This document shows positions 5,132-57,220 of a stretch of 64,000 bases of DNA, piece after piece. This stretch comes from Candidatus Moraniibacteriota bacterium (GTDB lineage Bacteria > Patescibacteriota > Minisyncoccia > Moranbacterales > UBA2206). The notes under the pieces were generated by a model that saw only the letters and a list, made by a program, of their open reading frames with translations, was not told the DNA's origin and did not search any database. The position numbers and the translations under genes are program-made. The stretch's first letter is position 1. The number at the start of each line of letters is the position of its first letter. Location of the stretch: NCBI GenBank assembly GCA_030645735.1, contig JAUSNP010000006.1:260824-324823 (forward strand), read 5' to 3'.

Positions 5132-5548
5132 GGATTTTCAAGGCAAATCTATAAGCCGGATTTTGTTGAAAGAAATCATTTATCTAGGCCAAACATTGCT
5201 GATTGGCTCTTGCAGTACCCGCCAATACGAAACACTATAAACTTCATCGAAACACTATCATGAAATTCACAATGCTTCGCATTGGCGTACGACCTTGCAT
5301 CTAGGTAAGGATTTAGCCGTTTCACTCCTCGACTTCACTCAGAGCAAGCCCTAAGTTTATTTCGAAGACTATTCCGCTTTTATACGGAATCTGCAATCCT
5401 TTCGAATTACAGCGTCTCTGCTCGCACCTCGTAGGTTACCCTAGACGGGTATTACCCGCTACCGATCCATTGCAAAGCAATGGTTGATGTCCGGACTTTC
5501 CTCCTCGACTTTGACGTCGAGGCGATTTCTCAATTTACCTTGAAAATT
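5132..5548 (-). ncRNA. rnpB: RNase P RNA, bacterial type
   Basis: Minus-strand reading contains the P4 5' strand GAGGAAAGTCCGGAC, the element GGCCTAGATAAATGATT (E. coli: GGCCUAGAUGAAUGACU), and the P4 3' strand ACAAAATCCGGCTTATAG. A P1 helix pairs tttcaaggtaaat with atttgccttgaaa at the two ends. Confidence 0.8.
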
Positions 5549-14833: not shown

Positions 14834-14845
14834 AATATGATTCTT

Positions 14846-14950
14846 GTCATTCCGGCCTTGAGCCGGAATCTACTTATTGTAATTGCGAATTTAAATTTAA
14901 TTCAATGAAACACAGGGCAGATCCCGGGTCAAGCCCGGGATGACATTTTT
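14846..14950. mobile_element. MITE-like element with about 24-bp terminal inverted repeats, copy 1
   Basis: TGTCATTCCGGCCTTGAGCCGGAAT ... ATCCCGGGTCAAGCCCGGGATGACA. Each terminus is itself a hairpin. About 80% identical to the reverse complement of 56225-56320. Confidence 0.6.
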
Positions 14951-17964: not shown

Positions 17965-18387
17965 CTAAAATAATTTATTTTGCTCCGCGTCCAATGCTTG
18001 ATTCACCAATGCATCCGCCACTTTGTTTCTCTCACGAAAGACATGGGCAAATTCCACGGTTTTGAAATCCAACATCAAATTCCAAATTTCGATGAAAAAT
18101 CTTTGAATCCTTTCATCACTCAATTTATATTCATGATTCAACTGCTTCACCACCAATTCACTATCTAGATAGCACTGAATTTTCGATTGCTTGGAATTTT
18201 TGCCCAAAAGTTGTTTAAGTTTTTTTAAGCCAAAAATCAAAGCCATATATTCAGCTTCGTTATTGGTTTTCACTCCAATACACTCGCCATATTTCTTGCC
18301 GAGCGTTTCTATATAAACCCCAATACCAGCCGGCCCCGGATTGCCCCGTGAACCGCCGTCGGTATACATAACTATTTTTTCATTCAT
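17965..18387 (-). CDS. rnhA: Ribonuclease HI-like
   Basis: 140 aa. Motifs YTDGGSRGNPGPAGIG, NNEAEYMALIFGL, DSELVVKQL, RERNKVADALVNQAL. Confidence 0.8.
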   Translation of the reverse strand: MNEKIVMYTDGGSRGNPGPAGIGVYIETLGKKYGECIGVKTNNEAEYMALIFGLKKLKQLLGKNSKQSKIQCYLDSELVVKQLNHEYKLSDERIQRFFIEIWNLMLDFKTVEFAHVFRERNKVADALVNQALDAEQNKLF

Positions 18388-18502
18388 CCCGCACTAACTT
18401 TCCAACATAATCAATTTTTGAGATTACATTGAAAACATACAAATAATTAATTTCATGCGCAACCATGGAACTAGCCCACACAACTTGGAAAGTTAGTGCG
18501 GG
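18388..18502 (-). promoter_or_regulatory. Long stem-loop (18-bp perfect stem, about 79-nt loop) that abuts the rnhA start codon
   Basis: CCCGCACTAACTTTCCAA (18388-18405) is the exact reverse complement of TTGGAAAGTTAGTGCGGG (18485-18502). The left arm ends 1 nt before the rnhA ATG. Confidence 0.45.
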
Positions 18503-18517
18503 ACTCATACTCCTATT

Positions 18518-45837: not shown

Positions 45838-45969
45838 AATTCTTTATTATCTTTTTATAATTCAATTATATCACATCCTACGCCATATTTTTTTGTGCCT
45901 CACAAAAACATTTATCCACCTCACTTTCTTATACGCAAAAACGCTCACAATGAGCGTTTTATATATTAG

Positions 45970-46040
45970 CACGGGTGGAAGGAGTCGAACCCTCACCAAA
46001 GGTTTTGGAGACCTCCGTTCTACCGCTAAACTACACCCGC
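45970..46040 (-). tRNA. tRNA-Trp (anticodon CCA)
   Basis: Cloverleaf: acceptor GCGGGTG/CACCCGT, anticodon loop CTCCAAA, T-loop TTCGACT, discriminator G. Confidence 0.75.
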
Positions 46041-46167
46041 CCGCCTCATTTGCCAATGAAATGAAAAATACCTACTCTCCGATTTTCATTAAGCTATAAA
46101 AATCATATTCGTAAAAATAATCTCACTAGCAAATGTGGCGGGCACGCCCAAATGGACATACCAAAGA

Positions 46168-46332
46168 TTATTTCGCTTCTTTGTGCACTGTGTGAACCTT
46201 GCATTTCTTGCAATGTTTTTTCATTTCCAACTTTTCTTTCAACATCTTCTTGTTACGAGTTGTGAAATAGTTAGTTGATTTGCAGACTTCGCATTTCATC
46301 TTCGCTAGATTGTCGTTGCCTTTTTTTGCCAT
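46168..46332 (-). CDS. rpmG: 50S ribosomal protein L33
   Basis: MAKKGNDNLAKMKCEVCKSTNYFTTRNKK...KKHCKKCKVHTVHKEAK (54 aa from the ATG at 46332). The listed ORF is over-extended at its 5' end. Confidence 0.85.
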   Translation of the reverse strand: MAKKGNDNLAKMKCEVCKSTNYFTTRNKKMLKEKLEMKKHCKKCKVHTVHKEAK

Positions 46333-46428
46333 AATATTTTCGTGGAACGTGGAACGTGGAACGTAAATCATTGATAGGATATACGTTTCGCGTTATGCGT
46401 TTTGCGTTATATGATTTACAAATTATTA

Positions 46429-46501
46429 ATTTCGCTTGAGCCGTTGAGCAGAATCGAACTGCTGACCTCATCCCTACCAAGGATGTGCTCTACCAACTGA
46501 G
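46429..46501 (-). tRNA. tRNA-Thr (anticodon GGT)
   Basis: GCCGTTGTAGCTCAGTTGGTAGAGCACATCCTTGGTAGGGATGAGG...TTCGATTCTGCTCAACGGCT. Confidence 0.8.
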
Positions 46502-46626
46502 CTACAACGGCAACTTCATTACAATAACCAAATTCCAAGATACAAACATCAAACAAATTTCAAAATTCAACATGGATATTTTTTGGAATTTGTTATTTGT
46601 TTTTTTGGTTTTTGTCACGAAGTGAC

Positions 46627-46712
46627 TGGTGGGCAGAGAGGGAGTCGAACCCCCGTAGACCGAAGTCGACAGATTTACAGTCTGTTGTAATTGACCACTC
46701 TACCATCTGCCC
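46627..46712 (-). tRNA. tRNA-Tyr (anticodon GTA), long variable arm, CCA encoded
   Basis: GGGCAGATGGTAGAGTGGTCAATTACAACAGACTGTAAATCTGT...GGGGGTTCGACTCCCTCTCTGCCCACCA. Confidence 0.8.
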
Positions 46713-46728
46713 ATTTTCAACAACCCAG

Positions 46729-46800
46729 AGCCGCCTTTCGGATTCGAACCGAAAACCTACTGTTTACAAAACAGTTGCTCTACCGTTGAGCTAAGGCGGC
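46729..46800 (-). tRNA. tRNA-Thr (anticodon TGT)
   Basis: GCCGCCTTAGCTCAACGGTAGAGCAACTGTTTTGTAAACAGTAGGTTTTCGGTTCGAATCCGAAAGGCGGCT. Confidence 0.75.
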
Positions 46801-50294: not shown

Positions 50295-50549
50295 ATGAAA
50301 AAGAAGATCCACCCAGAGTACCATGAAGACGCGAAAATCACTTGCGCTTGTGGCAATATTATTGAAACGGGCTCAGTAGTCAAGGAAATGAAGGTTGACA
50401 TTTGCAGCGCTTGTCATCCTTTCTACACTGGCAAGAAGAAATCACTCGACACAACTGGTCGCGTTGATCGCTTCAAGAAGCTGGCTGAAAAAGCTGAAGC
50501 TAAAAAAATTGTCAAGAAAACAACTCGAGTTTCAAAAAACAAGAAATAA
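50295..50549 (+). CDS. rpmE: 50S ribosomal protein L31
   Basis: [27 protein letters not shown]...[13 protein letters not shown]. Confidence 0.9.
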
Positions 50550-50574
50550 TCTCACTTCGATATCAAAAAACTCA

Positions 50575-50820
50575 TCCGCAAGGGTGAGTTTTTTGATTAC
50601 ACGTCATTTTTATTTCATAAAAATTACGGTTTGTCCATTTTCTTTGGCAGCAAAGAAAGTGGACGAAAAGAAACTGCTGCCCAGACTCGTGCTGTCTAAA
50701 TTTCTAGCGTACTCGCTAAAATTCCAATAAGAACGCTAAAAGGAAAACTAGTATGTAATTTCTTAACGCTCGTGCGCTGAAATTTAGAAACGCACTTCGT
50801 TATGGGCGAAAGTTTTTTTT
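50575..50820 (-). repeat. Dispersed ~250-bp intergenic repeat, copy B, inverted relative to copy A
   Basis: The reverse complement aligns at about 75% to 55290-55550 (GTGCGTTTCTAAATT...GAGCGTTAAGAAATT...AATTTTAGYGAG...TTTAGACAGCAC...CTTTGCTGCCAAAGAAAATGGAC). It includes a terminal terminator hairpin. Confidence 0.6.
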
Positions 50821-51724
50821 AAATTTTAAATATTAATTCGGCCGTCATTCCCTGTTTACGTTTGCGGTGCTTGATGGCACCTAGGAAGTGCGATTCTTTT
50901 TCAGTGAAACCAACTGAGACAATTAGATTTTGCCATCGTTCTATTGATTTATATTGCATTGTCCAAGGCATGTAGGTGTTTTGTAGATTCATCAACCAAT
51001 CATTGATGAACAAAAATTTTATTTTGTCTTCTGGGGACAACTGCAAGAAATCAGCGGTCACCTCTGACATTTGCAAATTGAATTTGGCCAAATATTTTTC
51101 GATTTCTTCCACTTCACAATTTGTCTCCGGAAAAGATTCTTCAAAAACGATTAGTTTCCCATCTGCCTTCAAAACCCGCCTGAGTTCTGCAAAAATCCCC
51201 TGCGACTCCTGCTCACTTTTCAAATGATGCAAAACCAGTTTGATTGTCACCAGATCCACTGACGCATCTACAATTTCACTCAGACTTCGGTGAAATTCAA
51301 TGCGGGTGTCCAGCCCATTCAAAACCGGCTGGCTCTTCAAATCAATTCCAATCAATTTTTTGATCTCCAAATTTTTCTCAGCCATGTTTTTCAAAAACGC
51401 CAATTTGCCACAACCGAAATCCAACATCGTTTCCACACCCCGCAAATCCTCTTCAATCATTTCCAAAAACATATCCCCTGGCTTGCCCAAGTCCAAGCTG
51501 TCATCGCGAAACTCTTTCAACTTTTTTTGATACAACTTGTTGATTTCTCGATTCGATCCAAGATTTTTGATTTCCGCAAAAAACGCTTCCACAAATTTTT
51601 CTGGGTCAATCAGATTTTCATGATTGGCAACCCAATGTTTTTTGAGCACAGCCAAAATATCCTTGGATGCCAAAATATCCAGAGGGTTTTTCAGTATTTC
51701 AGAATCAACAATATTCTTTAGCAT
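50819..51724 (-). CDS. Class I SAM-dependent methyltransferase
   Basis: 301 aa, motif I MLDFGCGKLAF. Confidence 0.6.
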   Translation of the reverse strand: MLKNIVDSEILKNPLDILASKDILAVLKKHWVANHENLIDPEKFVEAFFAEIKNLGSNREINKLYQKKLKEFRDDSLDLGKPGDMFLEMIEEDLRGVETMLDFGCGKLAFLKNMAEKNLEIKKLIGIDLKSQPVLNGLDTRIEFHRSLSEIVDASVDLVTIKLVLHHLKSEQESQGIFAELRRVLKADGKLIVFEESFPETNCEVEEIEKYLAKFNLQMSEVTADFLQLSPEDKIKFLFINDWLMNLQNTYMPWTMQYKSIERWQNLIVSVGFTEKESHFLGAIKHRKRKQGMTAELIFKI

Positions 51725-51733
51725 AAATCAGTT

Positions 51734-52288
51734 CTATTTTTTAGTTGCCAAGACATCCATATCACTAGCATCATGAACTGCTTCAATTATAGACTGCAAT
51801 TTATTTCTTATTTCATTCTCGTCACCAGTCCTTGGTATATTTGGCACAACTCCTGGCCTACCAGAAAGCGACCCGTCATTATCTCTGAAGAATCTAAATA
51901 ACAATTTTGCCGACCAACCAATTTCCATTATCTTATCAAAATGTTCTCTTTCGTGTTCAACAAGTTCCTGAGCTAACTCCTTATTATGCAATAGATCTGC
52001 TAGAAATTCCCTCATTTCATCCAAGCCACTAAGTTCAATCTCCCCTGGTTTTAAAATTCCAAATTGCGTTGAGTCATTAGCATTAAATTCTTGTAAGCTT
52101 ATGCGTCCATGAATAAAATTATTTACCGACATAGCAGATTCTTTATCTTCTGCTTCAACCTCAATGAGTTGTCGCGCCTCTTTCTTTGCTAAAAGAGTTC
52201 TAGCTACTAAATTTTGCAAATCCTCCTTTTCTACAAATGCATCTTTCTTACTTGGCTTATCATACATATTCACATGTGGTATTTCCAT
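51734..52288 (-). CDS. Hypothetical protein (184 aa)
   Basis: Intact ORF immediately upstream of the methyltransferase and co-directional with it. No recognised domain. Confidence 0.45.
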   Translation of the reverse strand: MEIPHVNMYDKPSKKDAFVEKEDLQNLVARTLLAKKEARQLIEVEAEDKESAMSVNNFIHGRISLQEFNANDSTQFGILKPGEIELSGLDEMREFLADLLHNKELAQELVEHEREHFDKIMEIGWSAKLLFRFFRDNDGSLSGRPGVVPNIPRTGDENEIRNKLQSIIEAVHDASDMDVLATKK

Positions 52289-52416
52289 AAAAGTAGTTAT
52301 TAAATAAATTAGATATTTTCACAAACCAATGTAATCTTTTTGACTTTATACCCTTAATAAAGTATAATCTACTAAGGTTTGAATGTAAATCAGACTATTT
52401 TAAAATAACAAAAAAC

Positions 52417-53478
52417 ATGAATCCGATTGCACTGGAAGTCAAAAAAGAATATGCCGAAATCGAAGCTCAGCTCAACTCGCCTGAGTTGCTTTCTGATATG
52501 CCAAAAATGGCCAAACTTGGCAAACGCCAAGCGGAGTTAGCTGACACGATGCGCCTCATTCAAGAAATGGAAACGATTGAAAAGAATATGAAAGACAATG
52601 CTGGCCTCATCAATGCAGATGAAGATGCTGAGATGAAACAAATGGCTATGGATGAAAACGTTCAACTGGCGCAAAGAAAAGAGCAAGTCGAAAAAGACTT
52701 GGAAGAATTGCTCATTCCCAAAGATCCCAACGATGACAAGAATATCATCGTGGAAATCCGTGCCGGTGCGGGTGGCGATGAATCAGCCTTGTTTTCGGCC
52801 GAACTTTTTCGCATGTATTCACGCTTGGCTGAAAAAAATGGTTGGCGTGTGGTTTTGCTCAACTCCAATGTCAATGGCGTAGGCGGATATAAGGAAGTCA
52901 CTTTTGAAATCAATGGTTTCGGTGTCTATGGCAAAATGAAATTTGAATCCGGCGTACATCGTGTGCAAAGAATCCCAGAAACAGAAAAGAATGGTCGCGT
53001 TCACACCTCCACTTCCACGGTAGCTGTTTTGCCTGAAGCGGAAGAAATGGATTTCAAATTGGATGACAACGACATTCGCGTAGACACTTTCTGTTCATCT
53101 GGTCCGGGCGGTCAATCAGTCAACACCACCAAGAGCGCTGTGCGCTTGACTCACATTCCCACAGGCCTGATTGTTTCCTGCCAAGATGAAAAATCACAAA
53201 TCAAGAACAAAGAAAAGGCCATGAAAGTTTTGCGTTCTCGCCTCTTGCAATTGGAAGAAGATCGTCGCGCCAAAGAATTGGGCGACGCGCGACGCGATCA
53301 AATTGGCACCGGTGACCGCAGTGAAAAAATCAGAACTTATAACTTCCCGCAAGACCGCATCACCGACCACCGCATCAAACAAAACTGGAGCAACATTCAT
53401 GGTGTCATGGAAGGCAATTTGGATGAAATTATCAAAGCCTTGGCTGAAGAAGAAAGAAAACTAAAAATGCAACAATAA
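52417..53478 (+). CDS. prfA: Peptide chain release factor 1
   Basis: GGQ motif ([11 protein letters not shown]) and an RF1-type tripeptide region, RVQRIPETE (PET in place of PAT/PVT). Confidence 0.85.
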
Positions 53479-53576
53479 AAATAAAAAAAATAATCACTTT
53501 TGAGTTCTTATTTTTTATATACACAAATTCTAGGATTTAATTTAAAATTCTGGAAACAACATTGGGGAGATGAAAA

Positions 53577-53879
53577 ATGTCAGGAGGAAAGAAAAAGCTG
53601 GTTACACCTATTTGGGGAAATCCTTTTGAGGTCGACATATCCAATGAGGCCTGTGGCAAATTCGAATTTGTACACAACGATATTACGCAACATTTTGTGC
53701 ACGGTCAAGTCTTTAAACATCCACAACACGGAACTGGAGTTGTGGAGGGAGTTGCATCCTCAGTAGGCGGACCAGATCCTGGGCCTAATGTCCTTTGGAT
53801 AATCTTTGAAGAGGATGTGAAAAAATGTGGGAAATTGGTCGTATCCTTCTGCGCCGAAATCAAGGAAGTTTCTAAATGA
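53577..53879 (+). CDS. Hypothetical protein (100 aa)
   Basis: Strong Shine-Dalgarno GGGGAGATG. A downstream nested terminator hairpin plus T-run at 53895-53940. Confidence 0.45.
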   Translation: MSGGKKKLVTPIWGNPFEVDISNEACGKFEFVHNDITQHFVHGQVFKHPQHGTGVVEGVASSVGGPDPGPNVLWIIFEEDVKKCGKLVVSFCAEIKEVSK

Positions 53880-53948
53880 AGCTTTACCGCTTCAAGAACC
53901 GCCAAGAACCTAAATGGTTCCAGGCGGTTTTTTATTTAAAAATAGATA

Positions 53949-54290
53949 TCAGATATTCATCAACACCACACCCACCATTGCCAAGCTAATTCCAACCCCC
54001 TGTGTCAGGGAGATTTTTTCACCAAAGATAAGCAGGCCAGATAGGATAATTGTCAGTGAATAGAAAACGATATGGATGTTGCCCGCAATGCTCAAGTCCC
54101 AGTGACGTCGAAAGACAAAAATGAAAAAAGAAACTTGCACCAAAATCAGAAGCAGAATCACTGCCATCCATGGGCTTTTGAGCGCTGACCAGAAACTGCC
54201 AGTCAAAGCAATTCTTTTGATCAATGAATCAGCAATACCCACCGACACGCCAGCCATAATCACTGCCAATAATTGTAGAATATTCGGCAT
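53949..54290 (-). CDS. Small 4-TM membrane protein (SMR/EamA-like small transporter of the drug/metabolite transporter superfamily)
   Basis: 113 aa with four hydrophobic helices. Confidence 0.5.
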   Translation of the reverse strand: MPNILQLLAVIMAGVSVGIADSLIKRIALTGSFWSALKSPWMAVILLLILVQVSFFIFVFRRHWDLSIAGNIHIVFYSLTIILSGLLIFGEKISLTQGVGISLAMVGVVLMNI

Positions 54291-54363
54291 AAATTTGTCT
54301 GTTACACGAAGTTATGATATTGTTTAGCCTGTAATTTACTATGCTCATAGTAACATAAATCAG

Positions 54364-55272
54364 ATGCAAATCGAAACTATTGGTGACCTGCAAAAAGAAT
54401 ACTTTGGCAAAATCGATCATCTCGATTTGGATTTGATTGTGGCGCATTCAATCAAAAAAACTCGGGAATTCGTGATGTCACATCCCGAACACAAGCCCAC
54501 AGGCGCCCAATTGGCCAAAATCAAGACATTTGCCCAGCGAAGGGCCAAACACGAGCCCTTGGCCTATATTTTGGGTCACAAAGAGTTCTTCGGCCTGAAT
54601 TTCAAAGTTTCGCCGGATACCCTGATTCCCCGACCGGAAACGGAGTTGCTCGTTGAACTCGCAATGCAAAACGTGGAACGTGAAACACAAAACGCAAAAT
54701 CGTTACACGATATGCGTTACACGATATGTGACATCGGCACTGGCAGTGGGAATATAATAATCTCAGTTGCAAAAACAATGACCATTGACCGATTACCGAT
54801 GATCAACTTTTTTGCTATCGACATTTCCAAAGAGGCTTTGAAGATTGCCAAACAAAATGCCAAGATCAACGCAATTTCTGACAAAATAAAATTTATCCAT
54901 GGAAATCTATTAGATCCAATTATAAAAAATCCTACCAACTACCAACTACCAACTACCAACTTAGTTATTCTGGCTAATCTTCCCTACCTCTCTCAAGAGA
55001 TTTATTCCGCCACCCTGCCCAATGTCAAAAAGTTTGAACCCAAGTCCGCCCTCTGGAGCGCCAAAGAAGGTTTGGATCATTATGAAAAATTATTACAACA
55101 AATTGCAGAGCTAAAATCGTGTTATATATTTCATGTTTCATGTTTCATGGAAATTAGCCCCGAACAAAAAACCAAACTTCCCAAAATTATCAAAAAGCAT
55201 CTTCCTCAAGCAAAAACACAATTCCACAAAGACTTAGCTGGCAAGTGGAGAGTTTGTGCAATTAAAGTTTAA
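54364..55272 (+). CDS. prmC: Release factor glutamine N5-methyltransferase (HemK)
   Basis: LAYILGHKEFFGLNFKV, RPETE, DIGTGSGNI, and NLPY in place of NPPY. It contains a 7-bp x4 tandem repeat at 54932-54959. Confidence 0.75.
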   Translation: MQIETIGDLQKEYFGKIDHLDLDLIVAHSIKKTREFVMSHPEHKPTGAQLAKIKTFAQRRAKHEPLAYILGHKEFFGLNFKVSPDTLIPRPETELLVELAMQNVERETQNAKSLHDMRYTICDIGTGSGNIIISVAKTMTIDRLPMINFFAIDISKEALKIAKQNAKINAISDKIKFIHGNLLDPIIKNPTNYQLPTTNLVILANLPYLSQEIYSATLPNVKKFEPKSALWSAKEGLDHYEKLLQQIAELKSCYIFHVSCFMEISPEQKTKLPKIIKKHLPQAKTQFHKDLAGKWRVCAIKV

Positions 55273-55289
55273 AATTTAAAAAAATAAAT

Positions 55290-55575
55290 CCGCGCCTTGG
55301 CGTTAGTGCGTTTCTAAATTCCAGATTGTGAGCGTTAAGAAATTTTTCGCTGCTCCTCTTAGCGGAAAGTCGTCCCTAAAATTTTAGTGAGCAATCTGAG
55401 AATTTAGACAGCACAAGCCGGCGCCGGCGGTTTCTTTTTGCCACTTTCTTTGCCGCCAAAGAAAATGGCGAACTGTTTTCTTTGCTGCCAAAGAAAATGG
55501 ACACTCTGTTCTTTTGCTGCCAAAAGAAAGTTAGAGCTGAAAATCAAAAACCCGCATGTTAGCGGGTTTTTGATA
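55290..55575 (+). repeat. Dispersed ~250-bp intergenic repeat, copy A
   Basis: Conserved 5' block CCGCGCCTTGGCGTTAGTGCGTTTCTAAATT. Three tandem hairpins with CNGC loops (TTTCTTTGCCGCCAAAGAAA, TTTTCTTTGCTGCCAAAGAAAA, TTCTTTTGCTGCCAAAAGAAAG). A terminal terminator AAAAACCCGCATGTTAGCGGGTTTTT. Confidence 0.6.
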
Positions 55576-55671
55576 TGCTTTTAAGTTAATCATTCAGGAA
55601 CACTTATTCTGCCGGTACCAGCAAGATACTTGTTCTAGTAGATTAGTTAAAAGTTGATAGTTTATCTAAGA

Positions 55672-55827
55672 CTATTTCTTTTTCTTTTTTGCTACAACTT
55701 TCTTTTTAGCTACTTTCTTTACTGCCTTTTTAGCTACTTTTTTTACAGCTTTTTTTGCAACTTTTTTTACTGCCTTTTTTACAGCTTTTTTTGCAACTTT
55801 TTTTACTGCTTTCTTTTTTGCTGCCAT
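55672..55827 (-). CDS. Lys/Ala-rich histone H1-like 'KKAV' repeat DNA-binding protein (51 aa); not in the supplied ORF track
   Basis: Manual minus-strand translation from the ATG at 55825-55827: MAAKKKAVKKVAKKAVKKAVKKVAKKAVKKVAKKAVKKVAKKKVVAKKKKK, ending at TAG. Shine-Dalgarno AAGGAAGGTGA lies 8 nt upstream. Confidence 0.6.
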   Translation of the reverse strand: MAAKKKAVKKVAKKAVKKAVKKVAKKAVKKVAKKAVKKVAKKKVVAKKKKK

Positions 55828-56224
55828 GTGGGTTTCACCTTCCTTTCTATTTTTAGTTTTATTTTTATACTTTTTTGTTTCGACCTTTTTATTTCGTCAG
55901 GAATATTTTTTAAAATTAAAAAATATTTCTCAACTACATAAATTATATAACATTTAAATTTATTTGCAATAGCAAAAAGTTATCCACAGGGCAAATTTTT
56001 TAACTTTCATTTTTTATTTTCTATTTTAAAAAATAATTTATTTTGCTTTTTGAAAAACATTGGGTGATTCTAAGTTAAAAGTTAAAAAATTAAAATTACA
56101 AAATCCAAATCACAAATCACAAACAAATCACAAATCTCAAAATTTTAAATAAAATCTAAATTTAAAAATTTAAAAAAACTTTCCGCGCCTTGCGTAGTGC
56201 GTTTCTAAATTTAATTGTCATCCC

Positions 56225-56320
56225 AGGCTTGACCTGGGATCTTCCTTACAATTCATCCAATAAATTAAATTTCGCGATTACAGTGAGTAGATTCCGGCTC
56301 AAGGCCGGAATGACAGACTT
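56225..56320. mobile_element. MITE-like element, copy 2 (inverse orientation), adjacent to a partial copy of the 250-bp repeat
   Basis: TGTCATCCCAGGCTTGACCTGGGAT ... ATTCCGGCTCAAGGCCGGAATGACA. The reverse complement aligns to 14846-14950. It is preceded by CCGCGCCTTGCGTAGTGCGTTTCTAAATTT at 56185-56225. Confidence 0.6.
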
Positions 56321-56383
56321 AAAAACATTTTAATAGAGAAAGTTAGCCCCGATATTATGCCCAAAATGCCATTTTTTGTCTAG

Positions 56384-56412
56384 TTGACGCACTGCTCAGA
56401 TGCGTTTAGAAT
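56384..56412 (+). promoter_or_regulatory. Sigma70-like promoter candidate
   Basis: TTGACG, 17-nt spacer, TAGAAT, about 100 nt upstream of the ATG at 56513. Confidence 0.4.
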
Positions 56413-56512
56413 TTATAGACAGAGACAATTTGGTCGGAACTACCCTAAAAAGGTAGATAAGCTTCAACGAAAGCCCCTTAACAATTAATATAGAAAGGAA
56501 GGTGAAACAAAC

Positions 56513-57091
56513 ATGGAAGAAGAAATCAAAACTGAAGAAGAAATGGATCAAGAAATTTCAACCAAGCAATGGCTTCAAGACAACCTTCGCATCATCATTA
56601 GCATCCTAATCGTGGTTGCTATCGCTGGCGGAATCTATTCATACTCAAACCGAGGAGAAGATTCAGCTAAGAATGATCAGGAAGTTGCTCAACAAGAAGA
56701 ATCAACTGGCGATAATTCAGAAGTTACCATAGACAAAATTTCTGAAACTACCCCAGCAGCTAAAACTGAAACTGTTGCATCTAGCCAAGAAACTGAAAAA
56801 TCTTTTATTGAAAAGGCTGGAAAGGGAGATGGCTCAACCGTTCTTGCTCGCAGAGCTCTAGCTAATTTTCTAGAAAAGAACCAAGACTCAGCCCTAACAG
56901 CAGAACACAAAATCTATATTGAGGACTATCTGCGCAAGAATGTTTCCCACAAAGGAAGCGTGCACATTGGAACTTCGATAGAATTCTCTAAAGACCTAAT
57001 TCAAGATGCGATTGCAAAATCGAAGAATCTGAACGAAAAACAATTACAGAATTTGCACAAGTATGCCGTTAGAGTTCCCTCTCTAGCATAG
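56513..57091 (+). CDS. Hypothetical membrane-anchored protein (192 aa)
   Basis: Acidic N-terminus, one transmembrane helix. Its ribosome-binding context ATAGAAAGGAAGGTGAAAC is nearly identical to that of the KKAV gene. Confidence 0.5.
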   Translation: MEEEIKTEEEMDQEISTKQWLQDNLRIIISILIVVAIAGGIYSYSNRGEDSAKNDQEVAQQEESTGDNSEVTIDKISETTPAAKTETVASSQETEKSFIEKAGKGDGSTVLARRALANFLEKNQDSALTAEHKIYIEDYLRKNVSHKGSVHIGTSIEFSKDLIQDAIAKSKNLNEKQLQNLHKYAVRVPSLA

Positions 57092-57220
57092 TTTTTCTTG
57101 CTAGAAGATAAATCAAGAAAAAATTTCATTGCTCCTTATCTCATAGTTAAGTATATTACTACTTTCTAATAACAAAACCCCTCGATGAAAATCGGGGGGT
57201 TTTGTGTTTAAAAATAAATT

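Follow-up and report, generated by a model that had tools for sequence, protein, structure and literature searches.

A hairpin doublet within the remnant of an RNA-like repeat in Moranbacteria DNA

The composite locus upstream of the 192-aa gene

Analysis of the window (the whole 64,000-nucleotide stretch of DNA studied here, which is candidate-phyla-radiation (Parcubacteria) DNA from a host genome of ~40% GC) revealed a composite locus directly upstream of a 192-aa membrane-protein gene (56513-57091). This locus, designated copy C, is probably a pseudogenised third paralogue of a multi-copy RNA-like family, the interior of which was replaced by a hairpin doublet of the Neisseria Transformation Sequence (NTS)/Ssn-related motif (SRM) type and a further 21 nt. 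Both ends of copy C were homologous to the RNA-like family and the element was ancestral at the site; there was no target-site duplication, and both copies of the doublet found in the window were lineage-specific.

The original prediction had reported that the 5′ block of a "250-bp repeat", here the RNA-like element, was repeated at this locus, and this was confirmed with small coordinate corrections. The retained block (CCGCGCCTTGCGTAGTGCGTTTCTAAATTT) comprised the first ~30 nt of the element and was located at 56183-56212 (+). Alignment of the partial copy with the intact copies A and B showed that homology began at ~56157 and included an AT-rich, promoter-like upstream block (..ATTTAAAAATTTAAAAAAACTTT; 56157-56182, +) common to copies A and B; the equivalent of this block in copy A contained a promoter-like match, TGGAGA-18-TAAAAT. 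Three bases (AAT) separated the 5′ block from the doublet at 56216-56315. The junction was as abrupt as predicted, but the ATTGT at which the break had been placed represented at most 3-5 nt of ambiguous microhomology, TGT also being the start of the doublet.

Orthologous loci, the comparison of which formed part of the original prediction, were found via homologues of the 192-aa protein, and synteny was conserved. At the copy C site, L004 (74% protein identity) contained a complete RNA-like element, L005/L006/L007 (74%) contained one full and two partial copies, and the copy of L003 (83%) was reduced to the 5′ block, one GC-rich hairpin and a single 3′ hairpin module. No RNA-like copy was present in L002 (90%), the closest relative. 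The hairpin doublet was absent from the copy C site in L002, L003, L004 and L005/L006/L007. As these relatives carried a full copy, multiple copies, a reduced copy or no copy, and never the doublet, the RNA-like copy is ancestral here and the doublet arrived recently.

An alignment of the window with L004 showed that homology halted at TCTAAATT, restarted at AAGTTAGC and then ran through the promoter and leader of the 192-aa gene. Past TCTAAATT, the window continued with the doublet and L004 with the interior of the element, ~190 nt of which was missing from the window. Homology to the full L004 copy resumed with a 13-nt 3′-terminal remnant, AGAAAGTTAGCCC (56337-56349, +). The end motif AAAGAAAGTTAG closed the copies in window A, L003, L004, L058 and L088 and is the normal 3′ end of the element. 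Because the L004 homology stops and resumes in this way, both extremities of the ancestral copy were kept and ~190 nt of interior was lost. Copy C and the orthologous L004 copy had the same TTGCG-AGTGCG spacing. The doublet was separated from the 3′ remnant by 21 unassigned nucleotides (GACTTAAAAACATTTTAATAG; 56316-56336), which showed no similarity to the RNA element or to the flank of the other doublet copy.

In L278 and L279, whose neighbouring genes were 96% and 81% identical, respectively, the orthologous spacers did not contain the other doublet (copy 1, 14845-14945). As relatives lacked the doublet at both sites, both copies are gains specific to this lineage and thus speak for turnover or mobility. 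The mobility and nested history originally proposed were right in outline, but without a clean filled-versus-empty pair: as this exact lineage yielded no empty-site allele, insertion followed by deletion is not distinguished from one-step replacement, and since L002 lacks both elements, loss and gain are not finely polarised. The only other assembly of this strain (L001) ended within the doublet, as expected of a repeat. The composite itself is an ordinary instance of repeats turning over in a variable spacer; its main use is as a dated marker of presence and absence.

The events at copy C may be reconstructed as follows. The spacer upstream of the 192-aa gene would ancestrally have held a full RNA-like element, of which three pieces would remain: the promoter-proximal block and the first ~30 transcribed nucleotides (together 56157-56212), and the 13-nt 3′ end (56337-56349). 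In place of the ~190-nt interior there would now be the 100-bp doublet and the 21 nt. The doublet would have arrived by a hairpin- or single-strand-dependent, duplication-free route at a recurrent breakpoint after GTTTCTAAATT(T), and the interior would have been lost in the same illegitimate recombination or in a later deletion. The remnant would be non-functional as an RNA gene.

Had a MITE been cleanly cut and pasted into an intact repeat copy, as in the original prediction, this would account for the abrupt junction, for the defined TGTCAT/ATGACA ends common to both doublet copies and for their absence from the orthologous sites of relatives. A copy did pre-exist at the site, as the orthologous spacers of L003-L007 indicate, but this was not a simple insertion: the repeat did not resume after the doublet and ~190 nt was missing. 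The target-site duplication that had been proposed as a check was found at neither window copy (flanks ..ATGATTCT / TTTTTTTA.. and ..AATTTAAT / GACTTAAA..), and no direct repeat was seen flanking 71 related doublets from metagenomic and viral contigs. We know of no transposase for NTS/SRM-type arms or with matching ends. A clean insertion is unlikely. The label MITE fits the shape of the doublet, but not its NTS/SRM-type arms, the differences between which were compensated within each arm.

It is also improbable that the 5′ block is an independent module (a promoter and a short leader hairpin), in which case copy C would never have been full length and the doublet would have landed beside it. 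Such a module would be consistent with the recurrence of the break after TCTAAATT(T) at nearly the same base in the first partial copy of L005 (…TCTAAATTTTAAT…), and with the L058 chimera, in which the 5′ block ended ~5 nt further, after TCTAAATTCCAGT. However, the 13-nt 3′ end of the element persisted downstream at the expected position, a full copy was present at the orthologous L004 site and the isolated 5′ block had no significant fold alone (z = -0.5). The break in copy C is best read as a recurrent weak point.

A functional chimera, in which the old sRNA promoter would drive a two-hairpin transcript regulating the 192-aa gene, seems very unlikely. The upstream block was kept, and the MFE fold of 56183-56512 paired the 5′ CGCCUU with the Shine-Dalgarno region; however, this pairing was a single low-frequency MFE feature, the 192-aa gene had its own conserved promoter downstream of the composite and the relatives manage without the doublet. 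That the shared 40 bp is a chance low-complexity match is scarcely credible even in an AT-rich region, as the 16-mer AGTGCGTTTCTAAATT occurred exactly three times (50781-50796(-), 55305-55320(+) and 56196-56211(+)) with 3 mismatches in each of the other two window matches (chance expectation by our arithmetic ~3e-5 exact matches in 128 kb), a profile from 10 family members matched window 56181-56214 at model positions 3-37 of 182 (E = 1.9e-07 within a 321-nt region), and the 5′ block was also found in other Moranbacteria genomes.

The RNA-like family

In addition to copy C, the window contained two intact members of the family. Copy A (55283-55575, +) had a long-stem domain and three 3′ hairpin modules, together with an intrinsic terminator. 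Copy B (50565-50818, -) was a divergent paralogue with a bidirectional terminator shared with rpmE. The two copies folded alike (z = -6.6 and -5.1, respectively). The shared shape consisted of outer and GUGC/GCAC stems, a long UCUAAAUU...AAUUUAGA stem, an inner domain, one to three CCACUUUCUUUG...CAAAGAAAAUGG hairpins and the intrinsic terminator. Both arms of the long stem were almost invariant in sequence.

An alignment of 13 copies from several genomes had 95.1% of cells paired, and 19 of 45 pairs showed changes on both sides. None of 500 shuffles reached the observed values on four of five measures; for the remaining measure, further pair types, 2/500 did so. When the structures were slid by 1-3 columns only 36-47% of cells were paired. 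G-U pairs outnumbered A-C pairs (44 vs 7), marking the sense (folding) strand; this asymmetry would also fit a role as single-stranded DNA. A search of the window with the Rfam covariance models returned no match to the family at the gathering score; a search over 50300-57200 up to E = 10 gave chance-level matches only, and a search of L088 gave no match at E ≤ 1. The family appears to be undescribed.

Extra copies were recovered from other Moranbacteria/Parcubacteria assemblies. The metagenome-assembled genome (MAG) UBA2282 (L006, L088, L119) contained at least 5 copies, and MAG JBAYWF01 (L012, L058, L075) at least 5 matches, at least 3 of which were full copies. A 15-mer scan of a genome collection gave mostly chance matches; at least 10 loci were true among the matches listed, and true copies lay in L012, L037, L049, L058, L075, L079, L087, L088 and L119, some with a second match. 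The only match to the RNA 5′ block in a viral collection was inside a long ORF and was attributed to chance. The genes flanking the copies were unrelated housekeeping genes, with no constant protein partner.

Subtypes were common to several genomes: the A-type, CCAGATTGTGAG, was found in the window, L005, L049 and L088, and the B-type, TTCAGCGCA, in L005, L119 and window B. Copies of two subtypes (type 1 AGTGCGTTTCTAAATT, type 2 GGAATACCAAGGTACAAATTGAAAC) were frequently paired head to head, as in L012 (6385-6760), L049 (2478-2892), L088 (1692-2138) and L119 (7049-7475). The 5′ ends in these pairs were only ~25-45 nt apart, which leaves little room for separate promoters. Some RNA-like copies also contained GC-rich palindromic mini-insertions of 20-45 nt (L003 3451-3470; L005 6412-6431 and 6539-6580; type-2 copies of L049, L088 and L119). 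In type-1 copies (L003, L005), in which the palindromes measured 20-42 nt, the insertion site was always GTTTC^T^AAATT and in type-2 copies it was in the 3′ arm. These mini-insertions are reminiscent of the mobile GC clusters of AT-rich genomes.

On the strength of these alignments and folds, the family is read as a set of paralogous structured small-RNA genes under purifying selection. Sibling small-RNA gene families are the comparison system for the "250-bp repeat". Like them, the family had several paralogues per genome, subtypes conserved across genomes and helices held by compensatory change, together with promoter-like upstream blocks (all three window copies) and intrinsic terminators (the two intact copies). 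Unlike them, it had no Rfam match, its long-stem arms were near-invariant and its copies were frequently head to head. To our knowledge, almost no non-coding RNAs are known in candidate-phyla-radiation organisms, and this strongly covarying multi-copy family, absent from Rfam, is the more interesting by-product of the analysis of the composite.

The hairpin doublet and its GIY-YIG relatives

Doublet copy 2, the "MITE" of the composite locus, was 100 bp in length (TGTCAT...ATGACA) and consisted of a left arm (56216-56241), a centre (56242-56289) and a right arm (56290-56315). Doublet copy 1 lay in the opposite orientation between two MacB/FtsX permease genes, where it took up 101 of the 122 nt of the spacer. 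The two copies were 83% identical over aligned 150-nt stretches, and similarity ended outside TGTCAT...ATGACA. BLAST of the whole doublet, including the centre, against ~280 loci matched only the two window copies.

The 26-nt arms were inverted in both copies, and terminal inverted repeats are thus present. Each arm comprised TGTCAT, an 8-bp stem, a 5-nt CTTGA loop (on the TGTCAT-reading strand), the return stem and a C; this pattern had 4 matches in the window and 0 in 100 shuffles. The arms of copy 2 were identical at 20/26 positions, and by manual count the 6 differences made up 3 compensated pairs within the arms. A CCCGGG arm in copy 1 versus a CCCAGG arm in copy 2 represented another compensated pair difference. 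Folded as single-stranded DNA, copy 2 gave z = -4.3 (+ strand) and -3.8 (- strand) with the arms as separate 8-bp hairpins; the predicted fold of copy 1 was one long arm-to-arm hairpin. As the arm differences were compensated within each arm, it is apparently the local hairpins, and not the identity between arms, that are under selection.

In flank, palindrome and trailing base, the arms match the NTS/SRM-type hairpin class recognised by small GIY-YIG single-strand nucleases (Ssn). The NTS is CGTCATTCCCGCGMAVGCGGGAATCYRG, and the wider SRM are single-strand hairpins that are bound and cut by ~94-aa GIY-YIG nucleases; ssn genes are typically flanked by the motif, and its trailing C is reported to be the most important base for binding (PMC11893778). 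The older dRS3 repeat of neisserial mosaic elements, ATTCCC-N8-GGGAAT, falls within the NTS (PMC1797815). Common to the window arms and the NTS are the GTCAT flank, the palindromic GC-rich stem and the C right after the palindrome. The SRM 5′ flank, HGTCWY, was represented by TGTCAT on 4/4 window arms, and all four ended ..GGAATC or ..GGGATC and so carried the trailing C. The published SRM pattern, HGTCWYN(0-2)YYVSBRHN(0-5)WNVSBRGN(0-2)RNCYNB, fitted one of the four arms (14917-14945, -) against a random expectation of 0.09 per window; on manual inspection the other three missed 1-2 stem positions. The window arms differ from the NTS in their 8-bp stem and CTTGA loop, which give AT[TC]CC-N11-GG[AG]AT rather than ATTCCC-N8-GGGAAT. 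Like NTS/SRM, the window class was oriented, mostly intergenic, very widespread and found as inverted pairs around a small GIY-YIG gene (L155).

Scanning with the arm pattern identified at least 120 loci in metagenomes, on contigs of 31-68% GC, and 34 loci in a viral collection. The two N3 blocks of the metagenome arms were complementary in nearly all cases, with a few single mismatches. The usual layout was TGTCATTCC-stem-CTTGA-stem-GGAATCCAG, 5-60 nt, then CTGGATTCCCGC-TTTCG-GCGGGAATGACA, and there were at least 71 complete related doublets, mostly of 55-120 bp. Two metagenome contigs (L226 6390-6530 and L225 72-400) contained tandem arrays, in which hairpin motifs recurred every 36 nt and whole doublets every 109 nt.

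The L155 unit, on a Parcubacteria-like contig, was organised as TGTCATTGCGAGC..GGCAATCCAGAG - GIY-YIG gene - CTCTGGATTGCC..GCAATGACA and represents the presumptive hairpin-gene-hairpin parent form. Its small GIY-YIG gene matched Pfam PF01541 (E = 1.3e-16), and the closest proteins were from Parcubacteria. No GIY-YIG gene was found in the 64-kb window by six-frame phmmer.

A third miniature element (18387-18503, 117 bp), whose 17-bp terminal inverted repeats, TCCCGCACTAACTTTCC / GGAAAGTTAGTGCGGGA, were perfect, was located between the RNase H and recJ genes. Its repeats, at 16/17 positions, also flanked a small GIY-YIG gene in L087 (733-1026; PF01541, E = 3.7e-15), which points to the element as a second gene-less derivative of a GIY-YIG unit in the window. 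Searches of NCBIfam (both GIY-YIG proteins) and of PDB sequences (the L155 protein only) gave distant or no matches, and membership of these proteins in cd10448 was for this reason not confirmed. The inverted repeat GAAAGTTAGTGCG (window 18488-18503; L087 1021-1036) contained GTTAGTGCG, which is the A-type 5′ block, and also GAAAGTTAG, the usual 3′ end of the RNA-like element. This overlap may be fortuitous, or it may connect the RNA-like element with a GIY-YIG nuclease.

Taken jointly with the reading of copy C as a pseudogene, the doublet is probably a gene-less miniature form of hairpin-GIY-YIG gene-hairpin units, standing to them as a MITE does to an insertion sequence. GIY-YIG proteins are a family of nucleases and are not known to carry out transposition.

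REP/BIME/REPIN elements are mobilised by RAYT (IS200/IS605-like) transposases. The doublet resembled them in being an inverted pair of imperfect palindromes of ~100 bp, in having no target duplication and in being a presumed single-strand hairpin substrate; it differed in its 5′ flank (GTCAT, not a GTAG-type tetranucleotide) and in its associated protein class (GIY-YIG, not HUH/Y1). The Correia elements are classical bacterial MITEs. The doublet was likewise small and non-coding, with terminal inverted repeats and several copies, but lacked a target-site duplication, and its arms were maintained as local hairpins, not as a matched pair of ends for transposase binding. The presence/absence polymorphism of classical MITEs was also shown by the doublet at both orthologous sites, although the empty site was in neither case a precise excision footprint.

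Neisserial dRS3 repeats and mosaic elements (NIMEs) are likewise hairpin repeats around short AT-richer segments, clustered in variable spacers that differ between related genomes (PMC1797815). The partner arms in many metagenome doublets fitted ATTCCC-N8-GGGAAT exactly, whereas the window arms (AT[TC]CC-N11-GG[AG]AT) fell outside the dRS3 consensus (PMC1797815), and the window had isolated doublets rather than the long arrays of NIMEs.

A related doublet was present in L004 (2441-2518), in frame within a methyltransferase gene and adding 26 codons (CHSRENGNLVNQTKICDWIPNQVGND). The window orthologue of this gene (50819-51724) was without a doublet. The filled L004 site and the "empty" window site were too diverged to give an exact insertion point. 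Rickettsia palindromic elements are likewise found in frame; they belong to another sequence family, and the window doublet copies were intergenic.

NTS/SRM hairpins were previously characterised in Neisseria and mostly Gram-negative bacteria, in an article that makes no mention of Patescibacteria (PMC11893778). The present results suggest that doublets of this type also occur in the reduced genomes of the candidate phyla radiation, both gene-less and as hairpin-GIY-YIG-hairpin units, and these doublets bear on whether Ssn nucleases mobilise their own motifs. A more ambitious joint proposal, which we regard as possible and advance tentatively, would have two parts. The RNA-like elements would form an undescribed, Moranbacteria/Parcubacteria-specific structured RNA family, of which each ~1-Mb genome would have at least 5 paralogues; its two subtypes would frequently lie head to head, its stem sequences would be near-invariant, and GTTTC^T^AAATT would be a fixed hot spot that repeatedly takes up GC-rich hairpins and other sequence. 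The TGTCAT doublets would derive from hairpin-GIY-YIG-hairpin units as genuinely non-autonomous elements, which Ssn-type nucleases of candidate-phyla-radiation bacteria would move via single-stranded DNA and which could insert in frame into genes.

Genetic setting of the locus

The gene order around the locus was rpmE, copy B, methyltransferase, prfA, prmC, copy A, a 51-aa ORF (-), the AT-rich spacer and the 192-aa gene. The spacer had been described as an AT-rich gene desert with heptamer repeats. The repeats were present as an AAATCAC array of 6.4 copies (56101-56141), but the spacer was not empty. A DnaA box and a promoter with a leader of ~100 nt, both conserved, lay within it, as did a promoter-like match upstream of the Lys-rich ORF.

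The promoter, a sigma-70-type match (TTGACG-17-TAGAAT; 56384-56412, +), and the leader of the 192-aa gene, which extended to 56512 (+), were both conserved in L002-L005 and lay outside the repeat. The sequence GAATTTATAGACAGAGAC at 56409-56430 was considered as a 3′ arm of copy C, a reading in which the locus would be a full-length copy with an insertion, and was rejected because the orthologous loci showed it to be the -10/start region of this promoter. Within the leader (56413-56512), invariant flanks, GGTCG ... GCTTCAACGAAAGCCCCTTAACAATTAA, bracketed a stem-loop whose sequence differed among L002, L003, L004 and the window; by eye, self-complementarity was apparently kept. The leader is a candidate cis-regulatory RNA.

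The DnaA box (TTATCCACA; 55980-55988) was the sole perfect box in the window and was conserved in position in L002-L005. Lying between the Lys-rich ORF and the 192-aa gene, it could have a regulatory role. The AT-rich region containing it was rejected as a replication origin, since GC skew was negative throughout with no sign change and there was only one perfect box. The 51-aa Lys/Ala/Val-rich ORF (55672-55827, -) contained 12-nt repeats (AKKAVKKV...) and had a histone-H1-like composition. It had a small minus-strand counterpart in the same place in L002-L005, and a Pfam search with it returned no match.

An AT-rich repeat of the AAATCAC / CAAATCACAAA type apparently recurred, by eye and as the reverse complement, at ~1935-2000 of L278, where it occupied exactly the spacer orthologous to the doublet copy 1 site (14845-14945). 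Elsewhere, the window encoded a class A RNase P RNA (123.5 bits; 5136-5541, -) and four clustered tRNA genes (Trp, Thr, Tyr, Thr; 45969-46800, -).
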